Under the pieces are notes generated by a model. The model searched no databases. It was given only the letters and a program-made list of their open reading frames with translations, and was not told the DNA's origin. From an uncultured Candidatus Saccharibacteria bacterium (lineage in GTDB: Bacteria; Patescibacteriota; Minisyncoccia; Sungbacterales; JACQCQ01): a stretch of DNA of 57,437 nt. This document shows, one piece after another, positions 3,630 to 53,952 of the stretch. The first letter of the stretch is position 1. Each line of letters opens with the position of its first letter. A program made the position numbers and the translations under genes. The DNA is taken from the NCBI GenBank assembly GCA_964494945.1, contig CAZBTX010000005.1:1-57437 (forward strand). The letters run 5' to 3'.

Positions 3630-3650
3630 CTCGATAGCTTTTTGGAAATC

Positions 3651-13608: not shown

Positions 13609-13620
13609 AAATCTCTAAAT

Positions 13621-13651: not shown

Positions 13652-13659
13652 ACGTTTGC

Positions 13660-14174
13660 TTTCACATCCGTAAGCCGAATTCTGTTGTCACCGTGCCTCG
13701 CTACCGCTCGGCACTCAGCAACATGGGGCAAGCGACATGCGACATGGCAGTTACGCTAAAAGCGAACAGTACCTTGTCCCTTGTCGCTTGTTGCTTGTCA
13801 CTCGTGCTGAACAATAGTGAGGCACGATGCGTGGCCATCTGTCTTGGCGTACGATTGCTCGCACGCTCCAGCGGACTACTTGTCTTAGGGCGAGTTTGGA
13901 CCTCGCACTAGTTTGTCCTTGCACCAGATAGGGTTTTCCACCCGTGTATGTTGCCAAACACGGAAGTCGCGTTCGACGCGACACTTTTCACCTTTGGTCG
14001 TGACATTATTGTGGCGGTCACAACTAGTATAGTCTCTGTGGCACTTATCCCGCCAGCGCGCTCCGCGCGCAGCGTACAGCGGTTAGCGGACAGCGGATAG
14101 TCAAAACTATACGCTACGCGCCATACGCTATGCGCTAGGTGCGAAGCACACCGGGCGGCCATCTCGATGTAAAA
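13660..14174 (-). ncRNA. rnpB: RNase P RNA (type A-like) with expanded P3/P19 and no CR-I/P4 5' strand
   Basis: Minus strand shows P1 (uuuacauc/gaugugaa), P2 (UGGCC/GGCCA), CR-II AGUGCCACAGAGA, CR-III AGGUGAAA, GGUGCAAGGACAAA, P18 with GCAA loop, CR-IV AGACAGAUGGCC and CR-V ACAGAAUUCGGCUUAC. Confidence 0.9.
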
Positions 14175-14183
14175 GACCCTCTT

Positions 14184-14212
14184 ATTATATAGTATTGACT
14201 TTAGTTTGGCAA
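14184..14212 (-). promoter_or_regulatory. sigma70 promoter of rnpB
   Basis: TTGCCA-17 bp-TATAAT on the minus strand, about 10 nt upstream of P1. Confidence 0.85.
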
Positions 14213-14243
14213 TAGGTTAGCTACGTTCTCAAAGCCAGTTTGA

Positions 14244-14366
14244 CCCCGTTAGAGGTCCGATTTGCCTGCAAATTGGCGGCAATCTTAAGTCGGTTTTCTG
14301 ATAAAATGGCGTTTAGCCATGCTAAGGGTATTATGGCACTAAAGCGATTGCCTACCCCTAACGGGG
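14244..14366. repeat. CCCCGTTAG...CTAACGGGG element
   Basis: TTGACCCCGTTAGAGG at the left end and CCCCTAACGGGGTTTGAC at the right end. Confidence 0.85.
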
Positions 14367-14448
14367 TTTGACGCATGTCTTTATTCTAAACTAAGATGAG
14401 TGTACTATTAGTCAGGCGTAACACTATAACTTCTTAAATTACTGCATC

Positions 14449-26247: not shown

Positions 26248-26319
26248 ATACCTAAAGATAAATTATGTTAAAAGAGTACCGCAAAATTCGCCCTTAGGCA
26301 AAGGAAGGAGGCGGGCTGA

Positions 26320-26547
26320 ATGAACGGGTTCTGGCGAGGGTTTTGGAAGTTCCTGAATGCCGAACTGGAGCCGGCGGATGCGATCAGAATTCCCTTTTTG
26401 GTTCTAGCACTCGTTTTGCTTTCCGTTCCGGCGTCAGTCCACCGCTGGAAGCAAAAAAGAGCCGAGAGAGCGCGCCGGCAACTGGAGGTCGCTGACCTCG
26501 CAGTGTATCGGGGGGAGATGGAACCAAAAACCGGAGAGTCGCCCTGA
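26320..26547 (+). CDS. Small membrane hypothetical protein
   Basis: AGGAGG upstream, one hydrophobic segment, followed by a hairpin. Confidence 0.55.
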   Translation: MNGFWRGFWKFLNAELEPADAIRIPFLVLALVLLSVPASVHRWKQKRAERARRQLEVADLAVYRGEMEPKTGESP

Positions 26548-26548
26548 C

Positions 26549-26578
26549 ACGGCCCCCATCGCAGACGATGGGGGCCGT
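26549..26578 (+). terminator. GC-rich hairpin terminator
   Basis: ACGGCCCCCATCG-CAGA-CGATGGGGGCCGT. Confidence 0.65.
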
Positions 26579-26674
26579 TATCAATTGTATTTATTAAATT
26601 AACTCACTCGCCCGGCCGCAAAACTTTTCTAATCAATCATTTCAATCATTCTTAGTTAGTTATTATTGATCATT

Positions 26675-26694
26675 TACATAATTTATTCCTATAG
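26675..26694. promoter_or_regulatory. 20-bp site upstream of the PaaX-like gene (direct repeat of 27270-27289)
   Basis: TACATAATTTATTCCTATAG abutting a TAAAAT -10-like box. Confidence 0.75.
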
Positions 26695-26711
26695 TAAAAT
26701 AATATGTATAT

Positions 26712-33290: not shown

Positions 33291-33300
33291 TAAAATTCTC

Positions 33301-33576
33301 ATGAAGATGTTTTCTCCCTACGCTTCAAGTCAAATCTTTAAGTTCCTAGCACTGATCGGAATTCTGGGAATAATATATTTTGTTAGGCATTGGGTAGTCG
33401 CTTCCGTTGGTATTTTTATATTGGGTACGTTCATAGCTTCAGAGGCATTTATATTGATGTTGGCTCGCTCGATGTTTAAGAATCCTACAGACGAGAATGT
33501 AGTAAAATTGTTTATGGTTTTACTCTTTAAAGACGCGGAGCAAGCCAACAAGATATTAGGTCAGTATAAGAAATAA
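33301..33576 (+). CDS. Small two-TM hypothetical protein
   Basis: AT-rich 91-aa ORF in tandem with the upstream gene. Confidence 0.6.
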   Translation: MKMFSPYASSQIFKFLALIGILGIIYFVRHWVVASVGIFILGTFIASEAFILMLARSMFKNPTDENVVKLFMVLLFKDAEQANKILGQYKK

Positions 33577-33653
33577 AATTTCTTCTTTCCGCAACCTTTC
33601 TCCAGCGAGCGGGCAAAAAATGGAGGGGGTGAGGGGGGGGAATTTTGCCCGCG

Positions 33654-33808
33654 AGCCGTCCGAAGCCCCGCCGCCCGCTCGGGAATAGCAGAGCCAAGCA
33701 AAATACTCTTTTCCTTTTAGAAGAATTTTTTGGTGGCGCGCGCAAATCGGAAATCGTAGAGAGTATTTTGCTTGGCGGCGAGCGTTAGCGAGCGGCGGCG
33801 GGGCGGCT
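33654..33808. repeat. Long GC-rich foldback (MITE-like) element
   Basis: Inner perfect 17-bp IR GCCAAGCAAAATACTCT (33693-33709) / AGAGTATTTTGCTTGGC (33760-33776); outer arms GCCCCGCCGCCCGCTCG / CGAGCGGCGGCGGGGC. Confidence 0.85.
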
Positions 33809-33869
33809 GTTTCCGTTCAGCAATTCCTGCTAAAATAGGTTCGAGCAAACTCGTAAAGATACACAAATT

Positions 33870-33899
33870 TAAACACCGGCAATGCATTGCCGGTGTTTA
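33870..33899. terminator. 30-bp perfect palindrome, probable terminator
   Basis: TAAACACCGGCAATGCATTGCCGGTGTTTA. Confidence 0.7.
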
Positions 33900-33926
33900 G
33901 GTGTCGGGTCGTGAGATGTCCTTGCT

Positions 33927-34166
33927 TCAAATCTTCGGCGTTACTTCTCCCAGTACTTTAGGATTAAACCCCATTTTCTTAATGCGAGTTCCTAGTTTCC
34001 ACTTGCCGTTCTAGAAGTGAGTTATCTGCATCTGACCTAACACGATCCTACCTTTACCAATTAATTTGGTAGCCCTATTCTTTATGAGAAAAATATATTT
34101 GTCAAGAAACTCAATTTTCTATTAGTTGCTTTTTTAATTTTCTAAATCGTCTAAGATGACACTCAC
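33927..34166 (-). pseudogene. 79-codon minus-strand frame interrupted by one TAG (34011-34013)
   Basis: VSVILDDLEIKKATNRKIEFLDKYIFLIKNRATKLIGKGRIVLGQMQITHF*NGKWKLGTRIKKMGFNPKVLGEVTPKI, ending before the palindrome. Confidence 0.35.
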
Positions 34167-34370
34167 ATCTTATTTAATTGACTTTATCCTAGTAGTATGC
34201 AATGGTAAGTATCTCCGCTCGGGTTATGCCCACACACCAATCTCGGCGAGACACTTTCGTATGCCGAGATGACAAGGCGAAGCCGCCTATCGGCTTGCAC
34301 ATCTGTTGTTGAGAATGTTTCTTCAAGATTGGTGTGGGGGTGAACCGAGAATTAGTGCAGGGGACGTTTA

Positions 34371-34476
34371 ACCCGTTAGAAAATTTATGGCAGGATTTAT
34401 ATCTGGTTAAAGCTCTAGATTTTAAATCCGGAGGACTTAACCTTTTTGAGCCCCTAGTTAAATTTTCTAATTGGGT
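34371..34476. repeat. Degenerate CCCGTTAGAAATT element in the helicase leader
   Basis: ACCCGTTAGAAATTTA ... TAAATTTTCTAATTGGGT. Confidence 0.7.
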
Positions 34477-34549
34477 CTAGCCCCACCCCCTCGACAAGCT
34501 CGGGGCAAGTCCGCACTAATGGCGGAGTTATAGATTAGGTTATAGATAG

Positions 34550-35800: not shown

Positions 35801-35873
35801 GGAAATTGATCTTAACTGCGCCTGGGGATAGGCCCTTTCCTTTTTAAGCTAAATAGGTTAATATGGGAATACT

Positions 35874-36041
35874 ATGGCTGAAGAAAAAGTAATGGGGTAT
35901 TGCGTAAAGTGTCGAGACAAGCGCGAGATGAAAAACGCGCAAGAAGTGTCAATGCCTGGCAAGGGCGGCCCACGCCGTGCCATGAAAGGCAATTGCACGG
36001 TCTGCAACACAGGTATGTACAGGATTCTCGGCAAGAAATAA
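35874..36041 (+). CDS. 55-aa zinc-ribbon protein (DUF5679-like; not in the ORF track)
   Basis: MAEEKVMGYCVKCRDKREMK...KGNCTVCNTGMYRILGKK with two CxxC motifs. Confidence 0.85.
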   Translation: MAEEKVMGYCVKCRDKREMKNAQEVSMPGKGGPRRAMKGNCTVCNTGMYRILGKK

Positions 36042-36058
36042 GCCAACTCCCTATTAGC

Positions 36059-36095
36059 AAACAAAAGAGCCCCGCTTCGGCGGGGCTCTTTTGTT
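36059..36095 (+). terminator. Intrinsic terminator
   Basis: AAAAGAGCCCCGC-TTCG-GCGGGGCTCTTTTGTTT. Confidence 0.9.
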
Positions 36096-36550
36096 TTTGG
36101 GTCCAATAGCTATTTTAAGCTAAAAATCTGCCTTATCCACAATCATTGACGGACAGAACTTTTCAATGCATAAAACCTGCTATATACTTTAAAACAAGGT
36201 TTACCAGTATATCGGTATACCTGCCCGCATGAAGCAGGCCGCTAGGGAATGGACTAAGCTCTAAAACTTTCAGTCCTATCCTTAGTGAAGTAGGCGAGAA
36301 ACATACTTGGCTAAGAAGACGGGGCGCTCGAAAGAGCGTTTTTCGTTTTTATCCGCCGTCGCAGAAAACTTTGGATGTAGGCCCAGAGATGAATGCGAAA
36401 AAGCATTAGATAATCCTATGCGAAATTAAACAGTAGATGCTTTGGCGGATTCCGCCGATCTCACAAGAGTTCGTCCGCCCCCGGCGGACGAAATGCGAGA
36501 TGACACGGCCTGAAGGCCGCGGGCTTCATTTCTAAGATTGTTTCTCACTC

Positions 36551-39500
36551 ATGGAATCCGAACATTATCAATTGGTAGACATCATCAAAAGAACCGGTCG
36601 TCCCAAGACGACCCTTTTGCGTTGGGAGCGGGAAGGCAAAATTCCCGTGGGACAGAGAGACGTACACGGATGGAGATATTACACGCGTGGCGAATTTGAA
36701 ATGATAATCCAATTTGCCGAGCGAATGCAGAAAAATATTTTTACTTACATCCCGAGGCATACTCGCATGGTCGCACAGGACTCCGCGCCCAAACAAAAAA
36801 AGATTTTCAACACGGTGCTGGCGCGTCTCGGTATCCGGATGTTCCTTACGATATTAATTTTCGTGGCTATTGCGGCACCCCTTAGTTTATCCGCGACCGC
36901 GGGTGTCCCGAGTGTTATAAATTATCAGGGACGACTTTTGAATTCCAGTAGTAGTCTCCTGGGCGGCGCCGGAACCAATTACTGCTTTAAATTTTCGATT
37001 TACGACAATCCGACAGTTGATTTAGGAACGAAGCTCTGGCCCTCGGGTTCACCCGCCACTACCACCATCAGCGTCAAAGAGGGCGTTTTCAACGCGGCCA
37101 TCGGCGCGGGCGACGACGCCTTGACTTATGATTTCAAACAAAACAACACGATCTATTTGAACGTTGAGGTGGGAAGTCAGGTAAGCGGATCGTGCGCCTC
37201 GGCTTCGTTTGAAAATCTTAGCCCGCGGCAAAGGATAGTTTCATCCGGTTACGCCATCACTGCCGGTTCTGTTTTTGGCACGGCGCAGTCCGCCGTTGGC
37301 ACTACTTCACTTATTGCCAGCACTTCTCTAACCGTAGAAGCTACTTCCACGTCCGTCATTCCTTTGACACTTCGCGGATTCGCCAATCAATTGGCCGATC
37401 TCTTCCGCATTGTAACCGCGGCCGGTTCTCAACTTTTGACGTTCACGAGCGGAGGATATTTAGGCATCGCGACATCTTCCCCGTCGGAGGCCTTGTCGGT
37501 CGCAGGAAATCAATATGTTACGGGGACCGGACTTTTTGGCGGCGCTTTGAGTGCTGGTACCATCCTCCTTAATGGTTCTTCTACTTTCCAAAACTTCACC
37601 TTCATAAATGCCACGGGTACGGCGGCTACCACGACCTCTTTGACTGTCACGGGCTATGCTTCCACCTCGGCTTTGACGGTGTCCAACTTGAACGCCGCCA
37701 GCTGCGACGTCAAATCCAGCATCACTGGCGTGCTTTCCTGCGGCACGGACGCCGCAGGCGGCGGCACCGGTTCCAACTGGTCCTTCTACTCCCAGTTCGT
37801 TATCACGCCTTCCACTACTCCCATCGGCGTCATCGTTTCGGCCGCCTCCTCCACCATTCCCGGTCTTAGCATGACTTTTTCCACGACGACATATGCCACC
37901 ACCACGTCCCTGGCTGTTACCGGCGCGGCTTCCACTTCTGTTCTCACTGTATCTAACGATGCCACTCTCATGGGCGGCCTCACTCTCACCTGCACCGACT
38001 GCCTCACCGACACCAACGTGGCCAACGGTCTCACCATCTCCGGCGGCAGTATCAACTCCACCCCCATCGGGGCCTCCACCGCCAGCACCGGCGTCTTCTC
38101 CAACGCCACTTCCACCAACTTCTACATCTCCGGGAACTTCCTATCAGGTGCCGCCTCTTCCACCATTACTTTCCTGCAGACATCTTTCTCCACCACCACC
38201 GCTGCCACCACCACGTCCCTGGCGGTGACGGGCTATGCTTCCACCTCGGCTTTGACGGTGTCCAACTTGAACGCCGCCAGCTGCGACGTCAAATCCAGCA
38301 TCACTGGCGTGCTTTCCTGCGGCACGGACGCCGCAGGCGGCGGCACCGGTTCCAACTGGTCCTTCTACTCCCAGTTCGTTATCACGCCTTCCACTACTCC
38401 CATCGGCGTCATCGTTTCGGCCGCCTCCTCCACCATTCCCGGTCTTAGCATGACTTTTTCCACGACGACATATGCCACCACCACGTCCCTGGCTGTTACC
38501 GGCGCGGCTTCCACTTCTGTTCTCACTGTCTCGGGCGCCTCCATCCTTAACGGCAATGTCACCCTGGGCCAGTCCAAGTTACAGACCCTAACCTTAAATG
38601 CCGGACGGCTGGACTTCATCAATGCCGCCACCTCCACCGTCATCAATGACATCGCCACCGCCTGGAGCATCGCCACTTCCACTACCGACATCACTCCCAT
38701 ACTTGTCATCTCCACTGCGTCCACCACGCCCGCCGGCGAGGGAGCGGTGGGCATCGGTACCTCATCTCCGGTCCAGCACCTCTCGGTCTCGGGCAACGCG
38801 TACTTCACCGGAGGCCTGGGAGTGGGAGCAGCCACCAGTACCAACGGCAACTTCCAGCTAACTGGGGACGCTCAAATCGGGACCGCTCTCTCGGTGGGAG
38901 GCATCGCTTCCTTCGGAAACACCATCACCGGCACCGTCTTGAACAGCACCACCGGTATCAACACGGGAGCGGGCGCCGGCACCCAAAGGATTGACTCCTC
39001 CGGCAATCTTTCCAGCATCGGCACCATCAGCGCCTCGGGCCTGGCCACTCTCTCGGGCGGCATTCTCGCCAACTACGCTTCTTCCACCATTCGGGGACTA
39101 TTCGTGGACATGGGGACGACGACATACGCCACTTCCACTTCTCTGGCGGTCACGGGATACGCCTCCACTTCGGCCTTGACGGTGTCTAACCTCAGCACGC
39201 TCATGGGCGGCATCCTTTCTAACTACGCCTCCTCCACCATTCGGGGACTATTCGTGGATATGGGCACCACCACCTACGCCACCTCAACCTCTCTTGCCGT
39301 TACCGGAGCCGCTTCTACTTCAGCGCTTACGGTTTCCAACACATCCATTCTTAACGGCAACGTAACTCTCGGCGCCACTTCGGCGCAGACGTTGACGGCG
39401 AACGCTTCTTCCACTTTTGCCAATAGTGTTGCTCTCAACGGGGATATTGCCATGGGGAATGCCATTGGAGACCGCATTTCCATCAGCGCCGGACTCGTAA

Positions 39501-41470
39501 ATTACGGAAATAATTCCACTACCACGATCCCTAATAACTTCGTCAACGCCTGGAGCATAGCGACTTCCACGGGCGTTATGCCGATTCTTTCAGTGAGCAC
39601 CTTTAGCGGCACGGGCCTTGCCAGTTCCACCAGTCCCGGCCGCATCGGAATTGGCACGACCACGCCCGAAGCTCGTCTTTCCATTGACAGCCGGACGGCC
39701 TCGGACGTCGGTATCGCGGGAATTCATGAGGTCTTGACGATACAACCGACGGCTGGCGGCACGCAGTTCGGCAATCGCTTGGTCGTGGTGAATAGTTCTC
39801 AATTCTCGGCCAATACCATGGTGGGGCAATTCATCCGCGTGGTTGATGATTCAGGCCTGGCTAATACCGTAAGAGGTCTGGAGATACAATCCAATAGCGG
39901 CACCACCACTCTAGGTGTTAACACCGGCCTTTACGCCCAGGGAAAAACTTTCGGCGTCCAAGGCATTTCCACCGGTGTCGCCGGTGGCTCGCTCATTCCA
40001 GCGGAGGTCTATGCTGAAATCCAGGAGCCCACGCAGGGGCAAGCCCTCCGCGTTTACACCGCGACCACCACCACTTCGGACTTAGCGCTCTTTTTCCAGG
40101 AAGGGTCGCAAACATTCTCGGGCACGGGGCTTAAGATGAACTTCCATAAAGGCGCGGGAACGTTCACGGGCAACTTCCTGGACTTGCAGGATAACGACAC
40201 TTCCAAGTTCCGCGTTACCGCATCGGGCAATCTGGAGATCGGCAACGGCAGTATCTGCGTGGACTCCGACGGCAGCTGCACCGCCTCCACTTCGGGCGGC
40301 GCCATTTCAGCCAATCGCTACAACACCGGTTCGGCCGACATTGCGGAAAATTATTTCTCAAATTCTTTGCTGGAGAAGGGCGACATTGTGAGTACCAAAG
40401 GCGGCCTCATGGTGGATAAGGCAGAAAATTCAACCGACCCCATCATCGGCGTTGTTTCAACCAAACCCGGTATTGTTCTGGGAGAAGACGAGGACGTAAC
40501 CGTTCCCGGGGCCAGCGCATATCCCATAGCGCTGGCGGGGCGGGTCCCCGTGAAGGTGTCCGATGAGAACGGGACAATAAAGATAGGCGACAAGCTCCAG
40601 CTCTCGTCACTCACGGGCATCGGCATGAAATACTTGGCTTCTTCCACGGGGGTTACCGTTATCGGCGTGGCCTTGGAGGACTTTGACGGAACGAATTATC
40701 TTTCTGAAGTCACGGTAAAGGTGGAAACCGAAAAGAAGATCTTGATAACTGAAGAAATGGTGCCATCCGACGACACCCAGGATTACAGCGGTGGTGAAGG
40801 CGGCACCAGCGACCAAAACGCGGGAGCGCTGATAGAGAAAAAATCGGTGGCGCGGCTCGCCGCTTCCACCACGATTGAGAAAATCTTCATGCCCCCCGCG
40901 AATTCTCCGGCCCAAGATGCCAATATCTCGCCTGGACGCACGGTTAAGGTCGGAAAAGTCATGGTTTTCGTAACACTCGGCTGGTCGCGACTGGACGAAA
41001 GGATTTCGCAACTTGCGACAAGTGGCACGGGGCAAGTGGCAACGAACGGTTGGAGCGTGGATCAGTCCACTGGCAAGGTGAATGTCAATTTCTACGGGGA
41101 TGTAAGTTTATCCGGCAACAACCTTATAAATGTAAAGAAGATCGTGGGCGCGGACGCCAAGTTTGTTTTGGATGAGACCGGTAAGCTTGTCGTAAAAGAA
41201 ATTGAAGCCGATGCGGTTAGAACGAAAAAACTGGAAATAGGGGATACGGCGACACCGGCGGGTATCATCCTCTATGACCAGATAACCAAAGAGCCGTACT
41301 GTGTTTCAATCGCGAACGGCGAATTCGTAAAAGTCGCGGGCGTTTGCGGTGCTGTTTTAAGTCCACCGCCCGCGCTGGAGCCGCCCCCCGCCGAGCCAAG
41401 CGGGACAGAAACCCCGCTCGTTTCCGAGCCGACTTCTGGGGTCACAACTGAACCGGCAAGTGCGCCATAA
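36551..41470 (+). CDS. Giant Ser/Thr-rich surface fibre protein with N-terminal MerR-type HTH and a C-terminal autoproteolytic-chaperone-like domain
   Basis: IIKRTGRPKTTLLRWEREGKIP..HGWRYY; hydrophobic segment at about aa 97-117; ATTTS/ASST repeats; SADIAENY..IGVVSTKPG..IALAGRVPVKV..IKIGDKL. Confidence 0.8.
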   Translation: MESEHYQLVDIIKRTGRPKTTLLRWEREGKIPVGQRDVHGWRYYTRGEFEMIIQFAERMQKNIFTYIPRHTRMVAQDSAPKQKKIFNTVLARLGIRMFLTILIFVAIAAPLSLSATAGVPSVINYQGRLLNSSSSLLGGAGTNYCFKFSIYDNPTVDLGTKLWPSGSPATTTISVKEGVFNAAIGAGDDALTYDFKQNNTIYLNVEVGSQVSGSCASASFENLSPRQRIVSSGYAITAGSVFGTAQSAVGTTSLIASTSLTVEATSTSVIPLTLRGFANQLADLFRIVTAAGSQLLTFTSGGYLGIATSSPSEALSVAGNQYVTGTGLFGGALSAGTILLNGSSTFQNFTFINATGTAATTTSLTVTGYASTSALTVSNLNAASCDVKSSITGVLSCGTDAAGGGTGSNWSFYSQFVITPSTTPIGVIVSAASSTIPGLSMTFSTTTYATTTSLAVTGAASTSVLTVSNDATLMGGLTLTCTDCLTDTNVANGLTISGGSINSTPIGASTASTGVFSNATSTNFYISGNFLSGAASSTITFLQTSFSTTTAATTTSLAVTGYASTSALTVSNLNAASCDVKSSITGVLSCGTDAAGGGTGSNWSFYSQFVITPSTTPIGVIVSAASSTIPGLSMTFSTTTYATTTSLAVTGAASTSVLTVSGASILNGNVTLGQSKLQTLTLNAGRLDFINAATSTVINDIATAWSIATSTTDITPILVISTASTTPAGEGAVGIGTSSPVQHLSVSGNAYFTGGLGVGAATSTNGNFQLTGDAQIGTALSVGGIASFGNTITGTVLNSTTGINTGAGAGTQRIDSSGNLSSIGTISASGLATLSGGILANYASSTIRGLFVDMGTTTYATSTSLAVTGYASTSALTVSNLSTLMGGILSNYASSTIRGLFVDMGTTTYATSTSLAVTGAASTSALTVSNTSILNGNVTLGATSAQTLTANASSTFANSVALNGDIAMGNAIGDRISISAGLVNYGNNSTTTIPNNFVNAWSIATSTGVMPILSVSTFSGTGLASSTSPGRIGIGTTTPEARLSIDSRTASDVGIAGIHEVLTIQPTAGGTQFGNRLVVVNSSQFSANTMVGQFIRVVDDSGLANTVRGLEIQSNSGTTTLGVNTGLYAQGKTFGVQGISTGVAGGSLIPAEVYAEIQEPTQGQALRVYTATTTTSDLALFFQEGSQTFSGTGLKMNFHKGAGTFTGNFLDLQDNDTSKFRVTASGNLEIGNGSICVDSDGSCTASTSGGAISANRYNTGSADIAENYFSNSLLEKGDIVSTKGGLMVDKAENSTDPIIGVVSTKPGIVLGEDEDVTVPGASAYPIALAGRVPVKVSDENGTIKIGDKLQLSSLTGIGMKYLASSTGVTVIGVALEDFDGTNYLSEVTVKVETEKKILITEEMVPSDDTQDYSGGEGGTSDQNAGALIEKKSVARLAASTTIEKIFMPPANSPAQDANISPGRTVKVGKVMVFVTLGWSRLDERISQLATSGTGQVATNGWSVDQSTGKVNVNFYGDVSLSGNNLINVKKIVGADAKFVLDETGKLVVKEIEADAVRTKKLEIGDTATPAGIILYDQITKEPYCVSIANGEFVKVAGVCGAVLSPPPALEPPPAEPSGTETPLVSEPTSGVTTEPASAP
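37649..38529 (+). repeat. 302-bp identical intragenic direct repeat (37649-37950 and 38228-38529)
   Basis: Direct comparison; period 579 bp = 193 aa. Confidence 0.92.
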
Positions 41471-41494
41471 AAATAAAACTGCGAACGTCCAGCT

Positions 41495-44400
41495 ATGAAT
41501 AAAATTAACAGGTTTAAATATCTTTCCGGGGCAATCTTGTTTTTGACGTCCTTCGGATATTTATTCGTCGCGTTCCATATTCCAGAAACGCAGGCGTCTG
41601 TTTACACGGCGCAGGGGACGTTTACTAAGTGCTCGGGTTATTGCAGTTCAACGGTCAATATCGGATTTCAGCCCAAAGCCGTTTTCTATTATTGGAACAC
41701 GGCGACCGCCAACGGTTTCGTGGCTGACGCCTCCGCCGGGTACGGGTTTGCTGCCTCCACCACCGCCGCCAATCCGGTGAACCGGTCGGTGGCCGTGGGG
41801 TCAAACGACGCCGACACCACTTCCGAACATTCATCCGTCATATCGGCGACGACTTCCATAATTATGATCACCCAGGGAGCTTCAGCCGGAACGGTAGATG
41901 CGTTCGCGAGCACCACGGCCTTCACCGCCGACGGTTTTACCCTCGGCTGGGGAGGAGACGCAAATGCTTACATTATCCATTATTTCGCGCTCGGCGGGGA
42001 TGATATCACGAATACCGACGTTGACACGTTCTCGGTTACAACTTCGGGCACCTCCCAGGCGGTTTCGTCGCTCTCGTTCCAGCCGGATTTCCTGATGTTC
42101 ATTTGGGGCGCCACAACTACGGCAATGGCGATAAATAACTCGTCCATGCAGATCGGGCTTGGCATTGCCACAAGTTCCACGGGCCAGGCAGCCATCGCAA
42201 TGGCATCGGGGGACGCCAACGCCAACAACACCAGCAAGGTCTGGCAGCAGCAGTCAACCTCAACCATACTCACGATTCAGCCATCCCTCGCGCCTACACA
42301 GGATTCCATCTTGAGTTTGTCCACTATGGACCCTACCGGATTCACCATGAACAAAATTGATCCTCCGGCGGCGACCTACCCTGTTTATTTCATGGCCATC
42401 AAGGGCGGCCGGCACCGCGTGGGCGGGTTTGGCCAACCGACTTCCGCCCAGGATCAGGCAACCACCACTCTCGGTTTCCAGCCCGACGGACTTTTCCTGA
42501 TGACGGCTTCTTCCACGTTGGACGGCGCGCTTTTTGGCGTGACGGCGGTTACAACTGGCGCTAAACCGGGCGGCAGTATCTCGGTCGGTACGGCTTCTTC
42601 CACCGCCAACCAGAGCGCTGTTTGGTTCCAGGACATCAACCTTGACTCTTCGGACGCCAACATGCATTCAACTACCACGGTTCTCGCCGCGAAATTGAAT
42701 CGTTCAACGGTGTATCTATCACAGGCAAAACTTAAAAGTTTTGATACGACCGGCTGGACGCTGACCTGGCTGCAGGCCGATGCCTACGGAGGCCAGTTCT
42801 TCTATTGGGCGGTGGGGGACAATCCGGCCTCAAATATCACTATTTCGGGGAATGCTTACGAAAACGATTCCGGCACGGCGGCTTTGCAGGCCTGCGACGA
42901 CGCTACGCCGAATATAAAGCTTATTGTCGCGACTTCCACTCCCGGCCAGTATTCCACCACCTGCGCTGACGTGACGGGGCTGTATCAATTCTCCAGCGTT
43001 TTTCTTGCTCCCGCGGCCGATACCAAAATGTTCGCCTACATTGACGACTCGGCCTCCACCTACGGCGCGACATTGACGCTTTATGCCGGCTCGGGAAATC
43101 TTACCGGTCTGGATATTCGCGCCAGCACCACCATTGTGAGAAGCGAGACGGCGACTTCCATTGGCACCGAGGACTTCGGTTATTGGGAAAACGCCCAGGA
43201 TTCCGACATCCTCTGGGAAGTTACGGCCGAGGGAATTACGTTTGAACAAAATACGAAACTCTGGATAAATTCCGGCGATACATTTGTGGCATCCAGCACG
43301 GCTTCCACCACGCCCGGCGGGACGTTCGCGCGGGGCGGCGACGTACAGATTGACGGAACATTGAATATGGGGACGCAGGGGCTCACAGTCGGCGGGAATT
43401 TAATGAACTTTGGAACGCTTACCGTCTCCGCCGGGCAAACCACTACCTTTAACGGTACTAGGGCCGGCGGCAACAGCTTCGCTCCCGGCAATGATTTCAC
43501 TTTTCAGGGGCTCACTGTCGGCGGGTCGGTGGCTATAACGGCATCCAGCTCGGTTAATGTCGCCCAAACCTTAACGGTGGGGAGCGGGGCGGTACTAACC
43601 GTGCCCTCCGGCAAAAACGCGACTACGACTTCAACCGTAACTTTGACGGGCACTATCAACGGCACCGGCACCACCACTTTCGGAAGCGCCGCTATCGCCT
43701 GCACCAACGTGCCTTCGGGCGGCACTTTGTCCGTCAACGTGCGGGTGGAGGCGACATTTGGCGGGTGCACCGTACCGTCCAGAACCTACGGGGCTAATCT
43801 GGAAATCCACAACGGCGGTACTACCGTTACGGGTGTTTCAGCCGAGACCTCGGGCACGCTATCGGTAAGCGGCAGTTTATATTTAAGGGCCGACGGCACG
43901 GCCAATACGACTTTCAGCGGAACGGGTAGCGCTTTAAGCGTTACCGGGGGTGTTCTTTATAACGGCGGCGGGTCGGGCAGTGAAATAATCCTGACCGGAG
44001 CCGGCGCTTGGACAGTTTCGGGCAACACAGATTTTACCGGCGGCACTTTTGCCGCTTCTTCCACCAATGTTTTTACCATGAACGGTACCGCTAAAACCCT
44101 GACTTCCGCCGCGCAGGCCTTCGCGGGATTGACACTCTCCGGCACCATCACAGTGGCCGACGCCGCTTCTTCCACGGCCTCACTTGTGCTTTCGGGGAGC
44201 GCCATAACTTTAAATTCCACCGCGAGCACCACGGGAGACGCCACGCTTTCGGGGACAATTTATCCTCAATCGCAAGCAGTAGTTTTGAACGGTGCATCAA
44301 AAACACTAACGGGAGGAGGCATTGTAGGTTCACTTCGCACTAACGGCTCCTACACGCTCTCGGGCGCCGATCTTACCGTAGGTACCTCAACCATCTATAC

Positions 44401-46588
44401 GAACGGGTCTTTAACCATCGGCTCCGGGCGGTTCTACACTTCCACTTCCACGCTTACGCTTTCCGGGACGCTTGCCAGCGCTTCGCTGGGGAACGGGACA
44501 ACCACCATCCAGCATTCCAACTTAAGCACGGGGGGTACTTTGAATTCCAATCTCCGGTTTGACGCGACCACTGCCTCCTCCACCATGCCCAATAGAACTT
44601 ACGGAGGCAATATTGAGATTTATTCCAACTCCGCGTCAGCCCGGGGTGTCGCAATGACGGCGGGGACTTACACCATTGGTTCAAGCCACTTGATACTGAA
44701 CGCCGCCAATTCGGGGAATCTTACTCTGGACGGAGGAACGAATAACGTAACGCTTACCGCCGCGAGCACAACCTTCATCGGCGCTGGCGCGGGAAGAGAA
44801 ATAATGCTCGCCGGCACCAATCCCTGGACGTTCAATCAAAACTTAACTACCACGGCCGGGACGTTCAAGGCCTCTTCGGCGACAACTTCCATCGCGGGGG
44901 ATTACGACAATTCATCGGGACTTTTCGTGCATTCTTCCGGTGTGGTGGTTTTGGACGGGCTGAACCAGCAAACCGTATCGGGAAATGCCACGTCCACTTC
45001 CGCGTTTTATGACCTCACCATTTTCAACAATTCCGGCACCAACGGCACCACCAGTCCCTCTGTGATATTCACCGACTCCGCTTCTACCACCAATTTGTTC
45101 ACCGCCACCACTACGGGGGTGAAAATACGCTTGGCGCAGGGAGCGGGGAAAATGCACACCTTCCAAAATATCAAGTGGGACGGCTTAAACTCGGTAATGC
45201 CCTTGATGTTCCGCTCCGCCAATTCCGGCTCGCAGGTGTCTATCCACGTTCCGGGGACCCAGAACACCGTATCGTTTACGGACTTTATGGACATGAACGC
45301 GTATGTAACGGCGATTACGGCGGACGACGGAACGAACGTTGATTCCGGCGATAACACGAATATCACTTTCCCCGCGGCTTTCCAGGCCCCCACCGCCGTT
45401 TCGGCCGCCAATCAGGTTTTTGAGGTCGGGCAGGCAGCGACCACCAATTCACAGATCACGGTTACCGGCGGGGCGGCCGCGGGCGCCATCACCGCCTCCG
45501 GCGGACTTCGTATCGCCATTGCCACTTCATCGGCTATGACGGCAAGCCCGGTTGATATGCGCTGGGATAAGACCATTACCACGGCCAAATTCGGCGGCAC
45601 GGCTTCATCCACGGCCGTGACCACCGCCACCGTTTCTTATGAAGGACTGGACGCGAGCGGAGACGCCAGCGTCCTTTCCATAGCGGTGGCCAACAATTTC
45701 AGCACCGGCAATACTCTTACCATTGATAATCTCAAGTTCAAGAGTTTTGGTACGGCCGCGGCTTCATCCTCGGCCTTGGTACTTTTCCTGAACGGGGCGA
45801 CCGACCAGAGTTCCAACGCCACGAATACGAACCAGTACGTCGCCATCAAGGGCGCCGAGGTCCTGGCCAATCAAACCGCGACACAGGAAGCGAATAAATT
45901 GAACATTACGCAATCAAGCGTTACGGACGCTGAACTTTTCGCTTTCAAATTAACGCCTGCCAGCGAGAGCGTGAATGTAACAGGACTCGTTATCCAAATC
46001 CCAGACGTCAACGGATTTGCCTGCGCGAACATCACCGCCAATATGGGATTATACGCCGACTACAGCGACAACGGCGACGTAGACGGCTTGGAAGCGACTT
46101 TCGGCGGCACGCCAGTCTGCTCCATCAGTGCCTCCACTCATACCGGCACTCTGACCTTCAGCGCGGCTTTTGCTACCTCCACGGCCCGCGGTTATATTTT
46201 GCGCTCCGATATCGCGAGCAACGACGCGGGTGATAAGATACTGTTCTCCATCAGCCCCTCCGATATAACCGCCTCCGGCGTCGTGTCTTTACAGACCATT
46301 ACGCCTTCCGGTAGCGCATCACAAGCCGCGCAATTTCGTGAGAGTAACTTGATAGGTAGTGGCAGCACCGGGGCCTCTCCGGTATATGAAACGCCCGTCG
46401 GTGGCGGGACACCCGGCGGTGGAAGTACTCCGCCTCCGTATGAACCGCCCACCGGCGGCGGGGTAGATCAAAGCGGCGGCGGCGGGAGCGTGCAAGCGCC
46501 GGACACTCGCTTCTTCGCGGGCATTGGGTTTGCGCTCGGTGACATTATTGGGAAAGTCATTGACCTTTTTAGGCCCCTAGGTAAGTAG
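41495..46588 (+). CDS. Giant secreted Thr/Ser/Gly-rich beta-solenoid-like surface protein
   Basis: Signal peptide; recurring (L/I)GFQP(D/K)-type modules; long GTLT/GSLT beta-repeat region; Gly/Pro-rich tail. Confidence 0.78.
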   Translation: MNKINRFKYLSGAILFLTSFGYLFVAFHIPETQASVYTAQGTFTKCSGYCSSTVNIGFQPKAVFYYWNTATANGFVADASAGYGFAASTTAANPVNRSVAVGSNDADTTSEHSSVISATTSIIMITQGASAGTVDAFASTTAFTADGFTLGWGGDANAYIIHYFALGGDDITNTDVDTFSVTTSGTSQAVSSLSFQPDFLMFIWGATTTAMAINNSSMQIGLGIATSSTGQAAIAMASGDANANNTSKVWQQQSTSTILTIQPSLAPTQDSILSLSTMDPTGFTMNKIDPPAATYPVYFMAIKGGRHRVGGFGQPTSAQDQATTTLGFQPDGLFLMTASSTLDGALFGVTAVTTGAKPGGSISVGTASSTANQSAVWFQDINLDSSDANMHSTTTVLAAKLNRSTVYLSQAKLKSFDTTGWTLTWLQADAYGGQFFYWAVGDNPASNITISGNAYENDSGTAALQACDDATPNIKLIVATSTPGQYSTTCADVTGLYQFSSVFLAPAADTKMFAYIDDSASTYGATLTLYAGSGNLTGLDIRASTTIVRSETATSIGTEDFGYWENAQDSDILWEVTAEGITFEQNTKLWINSGDTFVASSTASTTPGGTFARGGDVQIDGTLNMGTQGLTVGGNLMNFGTLTVSAGQTTTFNGTRAGGNSFAPGNDFTFQGLTVGGSVAITASSSVNVAQTLTVGSGAVLTVPSGKNATTTSTVTLTGTINGTGTTTFGSAAIACTNVPSGGTLSVNVRVEATFGGCTVPSRTYGANLEIHNGGTTVTGVSAETSGTLSVSGSLYLRADGTANTTFSGTGSALSVTGGVLYNGGGSGSEIILTGAGAWTVSGNTDFTGGTFAASSTNVFTMNGTAKTLTSAAQAFAGLTLSGTITVADAASSTASLVLSGSAITLNSTASTTGDATLSGTIYPQSQAVVLNGASKTLTGGGIVGSLRTNGSYTLSGADLTVGTSTIYTNGSLTIGSGRFYTSTSTLTLSGTLASASLGNGTTTIQHSNLSTGGTLNSNLRFDATTASSTMPNRTYGGNIEIYSNSASARGVAMTAGTYTIGSSHLILNAANSGNLTLDGGTNNVTLTAASTTFIGAGAGREIMLAGTNPWTFNQNLTTTAGTFKASSATTSIAGDYDNSSGLFVHSSGVVVLDGLNQQTVSGNATSTSAFYDLTIFNNSGTNGTTSPSVIFTDSASTTNLFTATTTGVKIRLAQGAGKMHTFQNIKWDGLNSVMPLMFRSANSGSQVSIHVPGTQNTVSFTDFMDMNAYVTAITADDGTNVDSGDNTNITFPAAFQAPTAVSAANQVFEVGQAATTNSQITVTGGAAAGAITASGGLRIAIATSSAMTASPVDMRWDKTITTAKFGGTASSTAVTTATVSYEGLDASGDASVLSIAVANNFSTGNTLTIDNLKFKSFGTAAASSSALVLFLNGATDQSSNATNTNQYVAIKGAEVLANQTATQEANKLNITQSSVTDAELFAFKLTPASESVNVTGLVIQIPDVNGFACANITANMGLYADYSDNGDVDGLEATFGGTPVCSISASTHTGTLTFSAAFATSTARGYILRSDIASNDAGDKILFSISPSDITASGVVSLQTITPSGSASQAAQFRESNLIGSGSTGASPVYETPVGGGTPGGGSTPPPYEPPTGGGVDQSGGGGSVQAPDTRFFAGIGFALGDIIGKVIDLFRPLGK

Positions 46589-50187: not shown

Positions 50188-51390
50188 TTGTGTACTCTTT
50201 TAGTCATGTATCTCCCAGCGGAGATTAGTAAAAAGAAAAAAGTTATAGTGGGGATGTCTGGGGGCGTGGATTCATCTGTCGCCGCGGCTTTGCTGAAACA
50301 TGCCGGATATGATGTGGTCGGCGTTTTCATGAAAAACTGGGCTGACCCCAAGTATCCCTGTCCGTGGGAAGACGACCGGCGGGACGCCATGAGAGTGGCG
50401 GCGATTTTGGATATTCCTTTTCAGACATGGGATTTTAGCCGCGAATACCGCGCGGCCGTGGTTTCTTATATGATCCGCGAGTACGCGGCCGGTAGAACTC
50501 CCAATCCAGATGTGATGTGCAACCGGGAAATTAAGTTCGGCATATTTTTGAATAAAGCACTTTCGCTAGGCGCGGATTTCGTGGCGACGGGGCATTATGT
50601 CCGGCTGTTGCCGGAATTCTCAATTTCCAATTCTCAATTTTCAAACAGTGAAAAAAACTTGGGAAATTATGAAATTGAAAATTCATTGAAAATTAAAAAT
50701 TATAAATTGAAAATTGCAAAGGACTTGAATAAGGACCAGTCGTACTTTCTCTGGACTTTAACGCAGGATCAATTAAAGCACGTTCTGTTTCCCATCGGAG
50801 ATTACACCAAACCCGAAGTTCGCAAAATGGCGGCGGAATTGGGATTGCCAACGGCGGAAAAACCGGATTCGCAGGGCGTTTGTTTTGTGGGCGAAATTGA
50901 CGTGGTTGAATTTTTGAAAGATCACATTCCCACGGAGAAAGGCAAGGTACTGACGACAGCTGGAAAAATAGTAGGGGAGCATGACGGCGTTTCTTTTTAC
51001 ACCATTGGCCAGCGGCACGGCATGGGCGTCGGTGGCGGCATTCCCTTTTATGTCGCGGAAAAAGATATTAGAACAAATACGCTGGTAGTCGCCCAAGGCC
51101 CGAATGACAATAAGCTTTTTGCCAGGGAGCTTGTAGCTATTGATGTTAACTGGATTAGCGGTGTACCTAGTTTTCCGTTGAAATGCGAGGCACGCATTCG
51201 GTATCGCCAGCCGCTCCAACGATGCAGCGTTCGGCGACAAGCGACAAGTGACAAGCGACAAAGTAAGGGGACATATCACATATCACATGTCACATGTCAC
51301 TTTGAGGAAGACCAGCGGGCAGTAACACCGGGACAGTCGGTTGTTTTCTATAAAAATGGGGTGATGCTGGGGGGCGGAATTATCGCTTAG
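50188..51390 (+). CDS. mnmA: tRNA 2-thiouridylase with two repeat-derived insertions
   Basis: GMSGGVDSS, TPNPDVMCNREIKF, ATGHY, KDQSYFL, DSQGVCF, TIGQRHG and AVTPGQS motifs. Confidence 0.97.
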   Translation: MCTLLVMYLPAEISKKKKVIVGMSGGVDSSVAAALLKHAGYDVVGVFMKNWADPKYPCPWEDDRRDAMRVAAILDIPFQTWDFSREYRAAVVSYMIREYAAGRTPNPDVMCNREIKFGIFLNKALSLGADFVATGHYVRLLPEFSISNSQFSNSEKNLGNYEIENSLKIKNYKLKIAKDLNKDQSYFLWTLTQDQLKHVLFPIGDYTKPEVRKMAAELGLPTAEKPDSQGVCFVGEIDVVEFLKDHIPTEKGKVLTTAGKIVGEHDGVSFYTIGQRHGMGVGGGIPFYVAEKDIRTNTLVVAQGPNDNKLFARELVAIDVNWISGVPSFPLKCEARIRYRQPLQRCSVRRQATSDKRQSKGTYHISHVTCHFEEDQRAVTPGQSVVFYKNGVMLGGGIIA

Positions 51391-51459
51391 TTAAGCCAAA
51401 TTTTTCCATATTCCACACTTTATCCTCATTTGATACACAGCTTGACCCAATTTTTGGTG

Positions 51460-51488
51460 TTGACAAAGGAAGACCCGGCGGCTAGAGT
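51460..51488 (+). promoter_or_regulatory. sigma70 promoter
   Basis: TTGACA-17 bp-TAGAGT. Confidence 0.8.
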
Positions 51489-51493
51489 GACAC

Positions 51494-51988
51494 ATACCAG
51501 AAGTCCTGGAATTTACAAGAATCCAATCGCGGGGTGCCTCTCGGGGTGCTGCGCGTGCGGGTGGGAAGGCAGAGAGGTAAGCCTGAGAGCCGGAGCTAGA
51601 AGGCGAGGGTAACCTCAAGGCCGTTCTAGGTCCAACTTTATCCCCTCTGATCCGTGTCGGCACGCAAAAGCCGACGCTATACTTCGCAAGCGACCCACAG
51701 GGTCGCGGGCAGGTAAAATGATCAGGGCTGGAAAGCATCTTTGCTACGCTAAACAATGCGGCGCGGGTTACACCGCGCGGCTAGTAAGGCGAGTATCCTC
51801 TATGGCGGAGGATACGGCAGGATGCAGTTGGGCTGTAGGGAGGCGCGAGTCTCCAAGACAGTCCTGGTGGCGAGTTAAAAGTAAGCCGCCTAGCTGACTC
51901 CGGAACACCAGCTCTCTCTGTCTCCCACTTCGTTTTCGATGGACGCCCTGCGATGTGGGGCGGGGCCCGTGCGCAAGCCGGGCCTTTA
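51494..51988 (+). ncRNA. Unassigned large structured RNA candidate (~490 nt)
   Basis: Promoter upstream, at least 10 helices, GNRA loops (GTAA, GCGA, GCAA), terminal hairpin followed by TTT, no credible ORF. Confidence 0.65.
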
Positions 51989-52026
51989 ATTTTGGAGAAA
52001 ATCGGAAAATCTGCTTTAATACCCAA

Positions 52027-53952
52027 ATGGACTCGCAGGAGATACGCAAACGATTTCTTAAATTTTTTGAATCAAGAGGACATACTATCGTACCTTCATC
52101 TTCACTAATCCCGAGTGACCCCTCGGTGCTTTTAACCACAGCGGGCATGCAGCAATTCAAGCCCTACTACACCGGCGAAGCAGACCCCCTTTCAACCACA
52201 CATCCCACTCTTGGTAAACCGCTGGGGTCAAAAAATGCCGTTTCAGTCCAAAAATCATTTCGCACCTCGGATATTGACGAGGTCGGGGATGAAACGCACC
52301 TGACATTTTTTGAGATGCTCGGCAACTTCTCGTTTGGCGGGTATTTTAAAGAGGAGGCGATTAAACTTGCTTACGATTTTTTTAAGGAAATAGGACTTTC
52401 TATTGAGTATGTAACCGTATTCGGGGGCGATTCTGAAGTGCCGGCCGATACCGAATCTGAAGAAATTTGGAAGAAATTAGGTATTACCGATGTACAGAGA
52501 AGGGGCCGTGAAGACAATTTTTGGGGGCCGACGGGCACTGAAGGTCCTTGTGGCCCGACAACAGAGATTTATGTTAGAGATACGGAAATTTGGAACATTG
52601 TTTTCAATGAATATTATTGCAAGTCAGATAAAACCCTAGAGCCGCTTCCGCAAAAGGGCGTGGATACTGGCATGGGGCTTGAGCGGCTAGCTATGGTTTT
52701 ACAGGGCAAGGAAAACATTTTTGAAACTGACCTTTTTGCGCCCCCGCTTGAGCTTTTGCCGAACGAAGTTGATGTCCGCCACAAACGGATTATTACCGAT
52801 CACCTTCGCGGTTCAACTTTTCTGCTGGCTGACGGAGTAAGGCCGTCAAATAAGGAAGCTGGTTTTATCTTAAGAAGGCTTATGCGCCGGGCCTTTGGAT
52901 ACGAAAAGTTATACAATATTCCGGCTCATGTTTTTGACGCGATTGTTCATGATATTGTACAGGAATACGGTGAATCTTATCCTGAACTTCTGACGCATAA
53001 CGAAATAATTCGGGAAGAACTGCATTTAGAAAAGGAGCGCTTTATTAAAGCTAATGAGATAGTGACAGAAGCCGGAGAAAAATTGATTATCGAAAAAGCT
53101 AAAAAAGCTAAACCGGAATTAAAAATCACAAAGATGAACGAAGAAAGTCGGCATCAGCTAATTGAGCTATTCAGTGAGTTAAAAAAAGAGAAAAAGGCTA
53201 GATTACCATTAGGTCAGTCTATTCTTATACCCGGCAAACCGGTTTATCCAGTTCCATATCAGGATTTAATCGAGGCTACGACAGTATCTGGAAAAGAAGC
53301 TTTTGATATGCACCAAAATACTGGAGCTTCTCTGGAGTTGGTCGTTCAAATCGCTCAACGATTCAATCTGGACGTTGATGAAGAGGGTTTTTGGCAGGAA
53401 TTCGAAAAGCACCAAGAGATCTCTCGGGCCGGAGTTGAGAAAAAATTCGGAGGGCACGGGCTCCTGCTTGATACGGGAGAGTTAAAAGCGTCTGACGAGG
53501 GTGAGCTGAAAATTGTTACTCGTCTCCACACGGCGACCCACCTTCTCAATGCGGCGCTTCACAAGGTTCTTGGTGACGAAGTTGAGCAGCGAGGGTCGGA
53601 TATTACTGTGGAGCGGACGCGTTTTGATTTTCTTTTTCCCAGAAAATTGACACCCGAAGAAATTTCAAAAATCGAAGATTTAGTTAATTACGCAATTCAA
53701 AAAGATTTTCCGGTAACTATTCAAGAAATGGACGTAGAGGAGGCCAAAAAATCAGGAGCTTTGTTTTTCTATAAAGGGCACTACCCGGAACGCGTAAAAG
53801 TGTATACAGTAGGTGAGAAGGCGGAGGTCTTTTCCAAAGAGCTTTGCGGCGGGCCGCACGTGGCTCGTACGGGAGAAATAGGCATTTTTAAGATAATCAA
53901 AGAAGAAGCGTCATCGGCCGGCATCCGGCGTATCAGAGCCGTTATCTCGTAG
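52027..53952 (+). CDS. alaS: Alanine--tRNA ligase, short form (no C-Ala domain)
   Basis: LLTTAGMQQFK, HLTFFEMLGNFSFG, DTGMGLER, HTATHLL and ELCGGPHV motifs; ends at GIRRIRAV. Confidence 0.97.
   Translation: MDSQEIRKRFLKFFESRGHTIVPSSSLIPSDPSVLLTTAGMQQFKPYYTGEADPLSTTHPTLGKPLGSKNAVSVQKSFRTSDIDEVGDETHLTFFEMLGNFSFGGYFKEEAIKLAYDFFKEIGLSIEYVTVFGGDSEVPADTESEEIWKKLGITDVQRRGREDNFWGPTGTEGPCGPTTEIYVRDTEIWNIVFNEYYCKSDKTLEPLPQKGVDTGMGLERLAMVLQGKENIFETDLFAPPLELLPNEVDVRHKRIITDHLRGSTFLLADGVRPSNKEAGFILRRLMRRAFGYEKLYNIPAHVFDAIVHDIVQEYGESYPELLTHNEIIREELHLEKERFIKANEIVTEAGEKLIIEKAKKAKPELKITKMNEESRHQLIELFSELKKEKKARLPLGQSILIPGKPVYPVPYQDLIEATTVSGKEAFDMHQNTGASLELVVQIAQRFNLDVDEEGFWQEFEKHQEISRAGVEKKFGGHGLLLDTGELKASDEGELKIVTRLHTATHLLNAALHKVLGDEVEQRGSDITVERTRFDFLFPRKLTPEEISKIEDLVNYAIQKDFPVTIQEMDVEEAKKSGALFFYKGHYPERVKVYTVGEKAEVFSKELCGGPHVARTGEIGIFKIIKEEASSAGIRRIRAVIS

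Follow-up and report, generated by a model that had tools for sequence, protein, structure and literature searches.

A candidate large structured RNA gene, with fast-evolving relatives, upstream of alaS in a Parcubacteria genome

In the 57,437-nt stretch of DNA analysed here (the window), a 636-nt gap separates mnmA (50188–51390) from alaS, whose true start lies at 52027, and the locus raises the question of what this gap houses. A first-pass annotation, made from the letters of the DNA, had seen in it a large structured RNA with its own promoter, which would be either a new class of non-coding RNA or a tRNA-sensing leader of alaS, and had proposed that it carries a double T-loop able to grip the tRNA elbow. 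The comparisons described below suggest that positions ~51495–51990 of the + strand probably form a gene in its own right. Its product would be a large structured non-coding RNA of ~490 nt from an uncatalogued and fast-evolving family, known to date from six genomes of one Parcubacteria/Paceibacteria subclade. The new RNA is credible, whereas the most striking feature claimed for it, the tRNA-elbow-gripping double T-loop, is not supported.

Gene boundaries and relatives of the candidate RNA

The proposed gene would be delimited by signals of its own. The promoter read earlier at TTGACA (51460) and TAGAGT (51483) was confirmed with its 17-nt spacer, and a promoter scan returned it as the sole promoter-like match on the + strand between 51000 and 52300. 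The terminator likewise stands as described (GGGCCCG..CGGGCC at 51963–51985, then TTTAATTTT). It is followed in the window by TTGGAG, 14 nt, TGCTTTAAT, 6 nt and ATG, a putative separate promoter of alaS that marks the downstream boundary of the RNA and is not part of it. The elements placed between and around these signals, by scan, minimum free energy (MFE) fold or comparison with one relative (L090), are as follows:

51411–51439, + strand: putative DnaA-box-like elements, TTCCACA at 51411, TTATCCTCA at 51420 and TGATACACA at 51431
51460–51488, + strand: sigma-70-type promoter TTGACA-17-TAGAGT from the promoter scan, predicted start about 51495
51497–51509, + strand: 5' hairpin CCAG/CUGG in the MFE fold, presenting AAGUCC (51501–51506), a copy of the motif WAGUMC
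51522–51529, + strand: 5' strand of the outer helix P1, UCCA[A]UCG, pairing with 51937–51943 (comparison with L090)
51530–51555, + strand: 'hairpin b', GC-rich, between P1 and P3 (MFE fold)
51557–51576, + strand: 5' strand of the long-range helix P3, GCGG-GUGGGA-A-GGCAGAGAG, containing AGAGA (pair probabilities)
51577–51913, + strand: variable multi-branched central domain (MFE and centroid folds)
51914–51933, + strand: 3' strand of P3, CUCUCUGUC-UCCCAC-U-UCGU
51937–51943, + strand: 3' strand of P1, CGAUGGA
51944–51962, + strand: penultimate hairpin, CGCCCUGC-GAU-GUGGGGCG (MFE fold)
51963–51993, + strand: intrinsic terminator, GGGCCCG-UGCGCAAGC-CGGGCC then UUUAAUUUU (sequence and MFE fold)
51992–52029, + strand: separate alaS promoter, with a weak −35 TTGGAG (51992–51997), an extended −10 TGCTTTAAT (52012–52020) and the start codon (52027–52029)

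Loci for comparison were retrieved via AlaS and comprised 80 GTDB loci, 80 JGI metagenome loci (found with a clade-specific AlaS fragment) and the contigs of the closest AlaS proteins, 175 in total. Homologues were found on five Parcubacteria contigs, each of which carries a GC-rich non-coding counterpart directly 5' of alaS:

L085: ~550 nt, gene order mnmA–RNA–alaS
L090: ~500 nt, gene order mnmA–RNA–alaS
L082: ~640 nt, gene order mnmA–rpoD–RNA–alaS
L092: ~610 nt, gene order mnmA–rpoD–RNA–alaS
L175: ~1000 nt (190–1198), gene order rpoD–RNA–alaS

The upstream neighbour of the RNA is mnmA in three of the six loci and rpoD in the other three. Searches with nhmmer and blastn, in which the window RNA was compared with the 80 GTDB alaS loci and then with all 175, returned only the same-genome self-match, and when the relatives served as nhmmer queries one by one, L082 and L092 were the only pair to be connected. 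Blocks of 12–16 nt shared by the window, L082 and L085 did not exceed chance. Global alignments beat dinucleotide-shuffled, reversed and reverse-complement controls in a chain that joins all six members (z of 6.2 for window–L090, 3.9 for L090–L082, 14.8 for L082–L092, 5.3 for L082–L085 and 10.6 for L085–L175).

The members retain a common set of signals. The promoter, an upstream TTATNCNCA box, WAGUMC and the terminator are present in six of six loci, with TTGAC (−35) and TAGRGT-like (e.g. TAGGGT-like) −10 promoters at the same place in the other five; WAGUMC stands 2–17 nt from the predicted start in every member, with just two further copies in about 3.8 kb of RNA. The CGAU motif, which in the window opens the 3' strand of P1, is common to five of the six. 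A hairpin occupies the position of 'hairpin b' in L082, L085 and L090, the relatives have an equivalent of the penultimate hairpin ahead of the terminator, and the 3' end is a GC hairpin with a T-run in all five of them. The neighbouring proteins of the members are only 14–34% identical, yet promoter, box, 5' motif, closing helices and terminator are retained, the closing helices having been compared explicitly only for the pairs window/L090 and L082/L092.

In these two pairs the helices appear to be maintained by compensatory substitutions. L090 folds independently to a perfect 15-bp helix at the place of P3 (GUGGGUGGCGGCGCG with CGCGUCGCCACCCAC), which differs from the P3 of the window by four compensatory and two one-sided changes and no disruptions, while P1 (UCCA[A]UCG/CGAUGGA in the window, UGAAUUG/CGAUUCA in L090) differs by two compensatory pairs. 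In a sequence-based alignment of L082 and L092, 32 of the 130 consensus pairs are compensatory, compared with 1–5 when the structure was slid along the alignment and with none of 500 shuffles reaching 32; as the structure tested comes from these two sequences themselves, its score is inflated, and the result is supportive rather than conclusive. Of the covariation that the first-pass annotation had proposed to look for, the evidence is pairwise, with compensatory changes in both pairs. Two further analyses were set aside: an RNAalifold consensus on a MAFFT alignment of the window and L090, in which the 3' halves were misaligned, and the mapping of one member's MFE pairs through sequence alignments, a biased test, since an alignment that maximises identity suppresses compensatory pairs.

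What the sequences show is the architecture of the gene, its non-coding nature, the existence of homologues, covariation within pairs, and an alaS promoter of which the RNA is independent. Several points weigh against reading the locus as a gene of a conserved RNA family. The transcript ends are predicted ones, and the function is wholly what we infer. All loci were fetched through AlaS, which makes the adjacency to alaS in six of six loci a matter of construction, and its meaning cannot be judged. There are only six members, and MAFFT and E-INS-i did not align them reliably, whether five or all six were taken. The longest uninterrupted long-range helix of the window RNA has 11 bp against a shuffle mean of 10.4, which is not significant, so P3 rests on the comparison with one relative. 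A covariance model (R1) of a 181-nt sub-domain of L082/L092 gave no significant match in the window, L085, L090 or L175, and most of the central domain is therefore not demonstrably conserved.

To these may be added the patchy presence of the RNA among close relatives, its fast sequence turnover and its variable length (490–1000 nt), which would fit a dispensable or selfish GC-rich insert, such as a mobile-element remnant or a spacer, or a unit that only insulates or occludes the alaS promoter; the T-run of the terminator does overlap the −35 of alaS. The RNA is carried by about six of the 175 related alaS loci and is missing from about 165, including seven close relatives (L084, L086–L089, L091 and L093), in which mnmA and alaS adjoin directly or have a histidine kinase or a short AT-rich gap between them. 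Most of the 80 GTDB loci have less than 100 nt upstream of alaS, and the 80 JGI metagenome loci yielded no RNA by nhmmer, GC excess or folding energy. Against an insert of this kind stand the set of signals kept between such divergent neighbours, the compensatory substitutions that maintain the helices, and the finding that the RNA is single-copy in the window, has no terminal repeats and matches nothing in the phage and plasmid collections. On balance such an insert is unlikely, and an independent RNA gene is the preferred reading.

Some observations concern individual loci. In L091, an N run at 3619–3717 is flanked by a duplicated rpoD 3' end, which points to a scaffolding gap, so the presence of the RNA is not reliably scorable there. 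Two loci that looked GC-rich, L055 and L072, were rejected as members: L072 holds a small reverse-strand open reading frame (ORF), and L055, a GTDB metagenome-assembled genome (MAG), carries at 5765–5960 a different GC-rich structured element of ~190 nt with a terminator, directly 5' of alaS.

Predicted fold and the double T-loop

The + strand of the window RNA has an MFE of −246 kcal/mol, compared with −195 ± 8.5 kcal/mol for dinucleotide shuffles (z −6.0), while the minus strand reaches a z of −2.8, and folds of relatives gave −4.6 and −5.5. Four other intergenic gaps of the window also fold far better than dinucleotide shuffles (13609–14448, with z of about −10 on both strands, and 33291–34549, 35801–36550 and 26248–26711, with −5 to −8, from only 15 shuffles), so that the z-score alone is not distinctive for the candidate RNA, and the unusual foldability of other intergenic regions counts among the points in favour of a dispensable insert. 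None of these four gaps has an Rfam match at gathering scores, and more unannotated RNAs, or else repeat structures, may lie in them.

P3 dominates both the MFE fold and the ensemble of the window RNA: its pairs between 51561–51576 and 51914–51928 have probabilities of 0.98–1.0, except for 0.50 at the A-U pair beside the bulged A. P1 has a modest ensemble probability of 0.1–0.33. Within the helices, all the strings listed by the first-pass annotation are present where it had placed them, and most fall in predicted hairpins of the central domain:

51596–51629, + strand: hairpin with GUAA loop; CTAGAA (51596) / TTCTAG (51624) enclosing GAGG[GTAA]CCTC (51605), strings verified
51645–51727, + strand: hairpin enclosing those at 51654–51677 and 51690–51706; CTGATC (51647) / GATCAG (51720), GTCGGC (51656) / GCCGAC (51670) and GCGACC (51690) / GGTCGC (51701), strings verified
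51761–51778, + strand: hairpin; GCGCGG (51761) / CCGCGC (51773), strings verified
51793–51815, + strand: hairpin; GTATCCTC (51793) / GAGGATAC (51808), strings verified
51830–51864, + strand: hairpin enclosing 51839–51854 (GCGA loop); GGAGGC[GCGA]GTCTCC (51839), string verified
51866–51890, + strand: hairpin
51864 and 51906, + strand: CTGGTG / CACCAG, strings verified, pairing outcompeted

The last of these had been proposed as a helix; its strings exist, but their pairing has an ensemble probability of at most 0.002. In L090 the only recognisable counterparts of the central domain are GAGG[GUAA]CCUC and the UAUCCUC hairpin, and the rest is not alignable to relatives. Only a frame appears to be conserved, which runs from the 5' motif through P1, a hairpin and P3 to the 3' hairpin with the terminator. 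L175 has a central domain enlarged by about 400 nt; over its first ~600 nt this member is similar to L085 and over its last ~110 nt to the 3' end of L082, and two of its CGAAAC motifs have about 360 nt between them, as against 18 nt in L082.

The double T-loop was read from the string GGC-AGAGA-GG-TAAG-CC-TGAGA-GCC, in which two T-loop-like pentanucleotides flank a short hairpin, and was likened to the interdigitated double T-loop that is known from T-box stem I, the S-domain of RNase P and the L1 stalk. The string itself is present (GGCAGAGAGGTAAGCCTGAGAGCC, a 24-mer at 51568), but the structural reading is not supported. AGAGAG (51571–51576) belongs to the 5' strand of P3, with a pair probability of ~1, whereas the local GGC..GCC/GG..CC hairpin that would present both pentanucleotides has a probability of at most 0.004 and costs 12 kcal/mol when forced. 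Unlike in the known module, the pentanucleotides are engaged in a long-range helix that covaries, and none of the relatives has them: in L090 the strand equivalent to the AGAGAG-bearing one is GGCGGCGCG, with CGCGUCGCC as its partner, and GGCGCG replaces AGAGAG. A scan for pairs of T-loop-like pentamers on either side of a hairpin, enclosed by a closing stem, found the arrangement in the window only and in none of the five relatives. The motif is therefore not conserved, and most likely it does not form.

Alternatives at the alaS locus

The position of the RNA could point to control of alaS in cis by a leader, whether a T-box-like riboswitch or an attenuator of another kind; the terminator would then govern read-through, and a double T-loop would hold on to the tRNA elbow. 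In all six loci the RNA has the orientation of alaS and stands immediately 5' of it, its terminator lies 35–270 nt before the gene, and AGAGA and UGAGA do flank a mini-hairpin in the window sequence. The adjacency, as noted above, is an ascertainment effect of the AlaS-based retrieval, and AGAGAG is engaged in P3, where it covaries, no relative having the double pentamer. The alaS promoter also speaks against a leader. In the clade (L004, L082, L085 and L090–L093) it consists of a TTGAAA-like −35, 17 nt and TGCTTTAAT or a near variant, and a TGNTWWAAT element 6–7 nt ahead of the start codon is conserved in loci with and without the RNA. A promoter so close to the start codon implies a leaderless alaS mRNA, and since alaS has its own promoter, the terminator of the RNA lies upstream of it and overlaps only its −35. 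The distance from the terminator to alaS is about 270 nt in L082.

A T-box leader (RF00230) shares with the RNA its place upstream of an aminoacyl-tRNA synthetase gene and its terminator end; unlike such a leader, the RNA has no specifier loop, T-box sequence or antiterminator, and the alaS promoter follows the terminator. The T-box model has no match in the six members at gathering score or at E ≤ 10, and the UGGNACC bulge, which had already been reported as missing, is absent from the window RNA. The alaS promoter, the lack of the RNA in most loci and the lack of T-box features together make a tRNA-sensing leader, as proposed earlier, highly improbable.

The earlier suggestion of a new large non-coding RNA class remains viable, as the RNA has no Rfam match and its homologues show compensatory changes. 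No Rfam 15 family reaches its gathering score in the window RNA, where the sole near-match is a terminator-like sRNA model (14.5 bits), and at E ≤ 10 all six members gave only chance matches to hairpins or terminators. That tmRNA ends and a group II domain V are missing was also borne out: ARAGORN finds only a tRNA-Ile in the window, Rfam gives no tmRNA and no Intron_gpII match, the only group II-related result is an 11.5-bit partial D1–D4 match in L175 (E 1.1), and the 5' ends of the members do not fit the group II 5' GUGYG. Nor are the regions coding, since tblastx among the member regions detects no similarity and a scan for TGA-recoded ORFs gives no sign of coding, the longest stop-free frames lying on inconsistent strands.

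The remaining alternative is a very diverged housekeeping RNA, above all the RNA of RNase P. The size range and the gene form, with strong promoter and terminator, fit, and the 5' AAGUCC resembles CR-I (GGAAAGUCC), while AGAGAG..GUAAG recalls J11/12 and J12/13. The 3' string CCUAG..UGACUCC-GGAAC-ACCAGCU resembles what we take to be the Escherichia coli counterpart, CCUAG..UGACUGUCC..ACAGAAC-CCGGCUU, with GGAAC-ACCAGCU in the place of CR-V. By manual inspection, a P4-like pairing (CR-I GGAAAGUCC with CR-V ACAGAA..CCGGCUUA) could be drawn for the window, where AAG[UC]CUGG could pair with CCAG-CU, and analogously for L085; it was not consistent in L082, L092 and L175. An attempt to fit the window RNA by hand to the type A fold of RNase P was abandoned as inconsistent across members.

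RNase P RNAs of the Candidate Phyla Radiation (CPR) are diverged, with helices missing or extended, and can evade Rfam thresholds, 10 of 35 circular CPR genomes being without a match at the standard cut-off (Lui et al. 2021, PMC8172020); this was the sole relevant paper in a literature search that found no description of an RNA like the present one. Against RNase P, none of its models (RF00010, RF00011 and others) matches any of the six members at E ≤ 10 (roughly at least 10–13 bits). There is no P1–P3 ahead of AGUCC, the predicted start lying just 6 nt upstream, and the closing helices are nested and do not form a P2/P4 pseudoknot. The CR-like strings vary, AGUCC being AGUAC in three members and AGAGAG being GGCGCG in L090. 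Turnover is far faster than in the RNase P core, the RNA being undetectable by nhmmer between genomes with 70–75% identical AlaS, and one member measures about 1000 nt. A diverged RNase P RNA is therefore given little credence.

Among catalogued RNAs, the closest analogies of the proposed independent gene are with OLE, ROOL, GOLLD and raiA-motif RNA. Like these, it would be a stand-alone gene of several hundred nucleotides, richer in G+C than the DNA around it, with a promoter and a terminator of its own, several GNRA-capped hairpins in a multi-branched fold, long-range closure of its ends and a function not evident from its neighbours. Unlike them, it has no Rfam model match and no association with phages or tRNA genes, and it keeps few short motifs (WAGUMC, GAUGG/GGGUG, CGAAAC, CGAU) in six genomes of one CPR subclade, whereas OLE, ROOL, GOLLD and raiA keep many invariant nucleotides across phyla. 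The OLE, ROOL, GOLLD, HEARO and raiA models gave no match at E ≤ 10 in the six members, with the exception of a 14.4-bit raiA-hairpin match to the minus strand of the 3' hairpin and terminator of L090. With 6S and Ms1-type RNAs it shares the predicted stand-alone structured form and, in three of six loci, a place directly downstream of rpoD; it differs from them in lacking a rod with a central bubble and an Rfam 6S match and in being much longer, and the adjacency to rpoD is not universal.

The neighbouring genes have features of their own. At 0.57–0.60, the G+C content of the gap exceeds that of most of the DNA around it (about 0.30–0.50 nearby). AlaS begins at 52027 with a conserved N-terminus, MDSQEIRKRF, and shares 55–74% identity with proteins from Sungbacteria, Giovannonibacteria and related MAGs; the source of the window is a genome of the Parcubacteria (Patescibacteria/CPR). 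The protein is short (52027–53952, 641 aa), with only the tRNA-synt_2c and tRNA_SAD domains and without a C-terminal C-Ala/DHHA1, and contains an insertion relative to its ~575-aa relatives, by which BLAST alignments are split. The product of mnmA has tRNA_Me_trans domains, and the 3' end of the gene (51237–51300) holds an in-frame insertion of near-identical heptamer runs (GACAAGC GACAAGT GACAAGC GACAAAG, then CATATCA CATATCA CATGTCA CATGTCA). A complementary run (CTTGTCC CTTGTCG CTTGTTG CTTGTCA) lies at 13729–13800, in the 13.7-kb intergenic region.

DnaA-box-like elements and possible role

A TTATNCNCA-type 9-mer stands 5' of the −35 in six of six RNA loci, where it agrees with the DnaA-box consensus TTATNCACA exactly in three and with one mismatch in three. 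Across 1.6 Mb of related loci the DnaA box shows no enrichment (37 observed, about 50 expected). A replication origin (oriC) was considered for these boxes and rejected, as only one to three boxes are present, without enrichment in the window, and as the cumulative GC skew rises across the region without sustained reversal. Copies of TTATNCACA were also seen a few nucleotides before a TTGAC −35 on the minus strand of L013 (~7894 of the reverse complement) and, as an exact copy, at 36133 (36133–36150), upstream of the giant ORFs at 36551–46588.

Transcription of the RNA would start from the sigma-70-type promoter behind the conserved DnaA-box-like element and would be stopped by the intrinsic terminator before the separate promoter of the leaderless alaS. 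The transcript would begin with the short WAGUMC motif, either single-stranded or presented in a loop, and its 5' and 3' parts would be joined by the nested long-range helices P1 and P3, which would enclose the variable multi-branched central domain with its several GNRA-capped hairpins, the 3' end being formed by a hairpin and the terminator. Such an RNA may work in trans and in a structural capacity, most plausibly as a scaffold of a ribonucleoprotein (RNP), and not in cis on alaS. The conserved DnaA box suggests that its synthesis may be coupled to DnaA and to replication status. A more tentative proposal, possible but less likely than not, is that the family constitutes a new class of large structured RNA, unrelated to catalogued families and specific to a lineage of ultra-small CPR bacteria, which through its DnaA-box promoter is tied to replication or the cell cycle and which serves in trans as an RNP scaffold or a ribozyme.

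Large structured bacterial RNAs without known function are rare, and past examples are ribozymes, RNP scaffolds and self-assembling cages. The genomes of CPR/Patescibacteria are tiny and leave little space for sequence that could be dispensed with, and to our knowledge almost nothing is known of their non-coding RNAs. If the present reading is true, an RNA gene of 0.5–1 kb that keeps its architecture despite divergence beyond the reach of nhmmer would be something new to RNA structural biology, and it may offer a handle on DnaA-linked regulation in uncultured CPR organisms.

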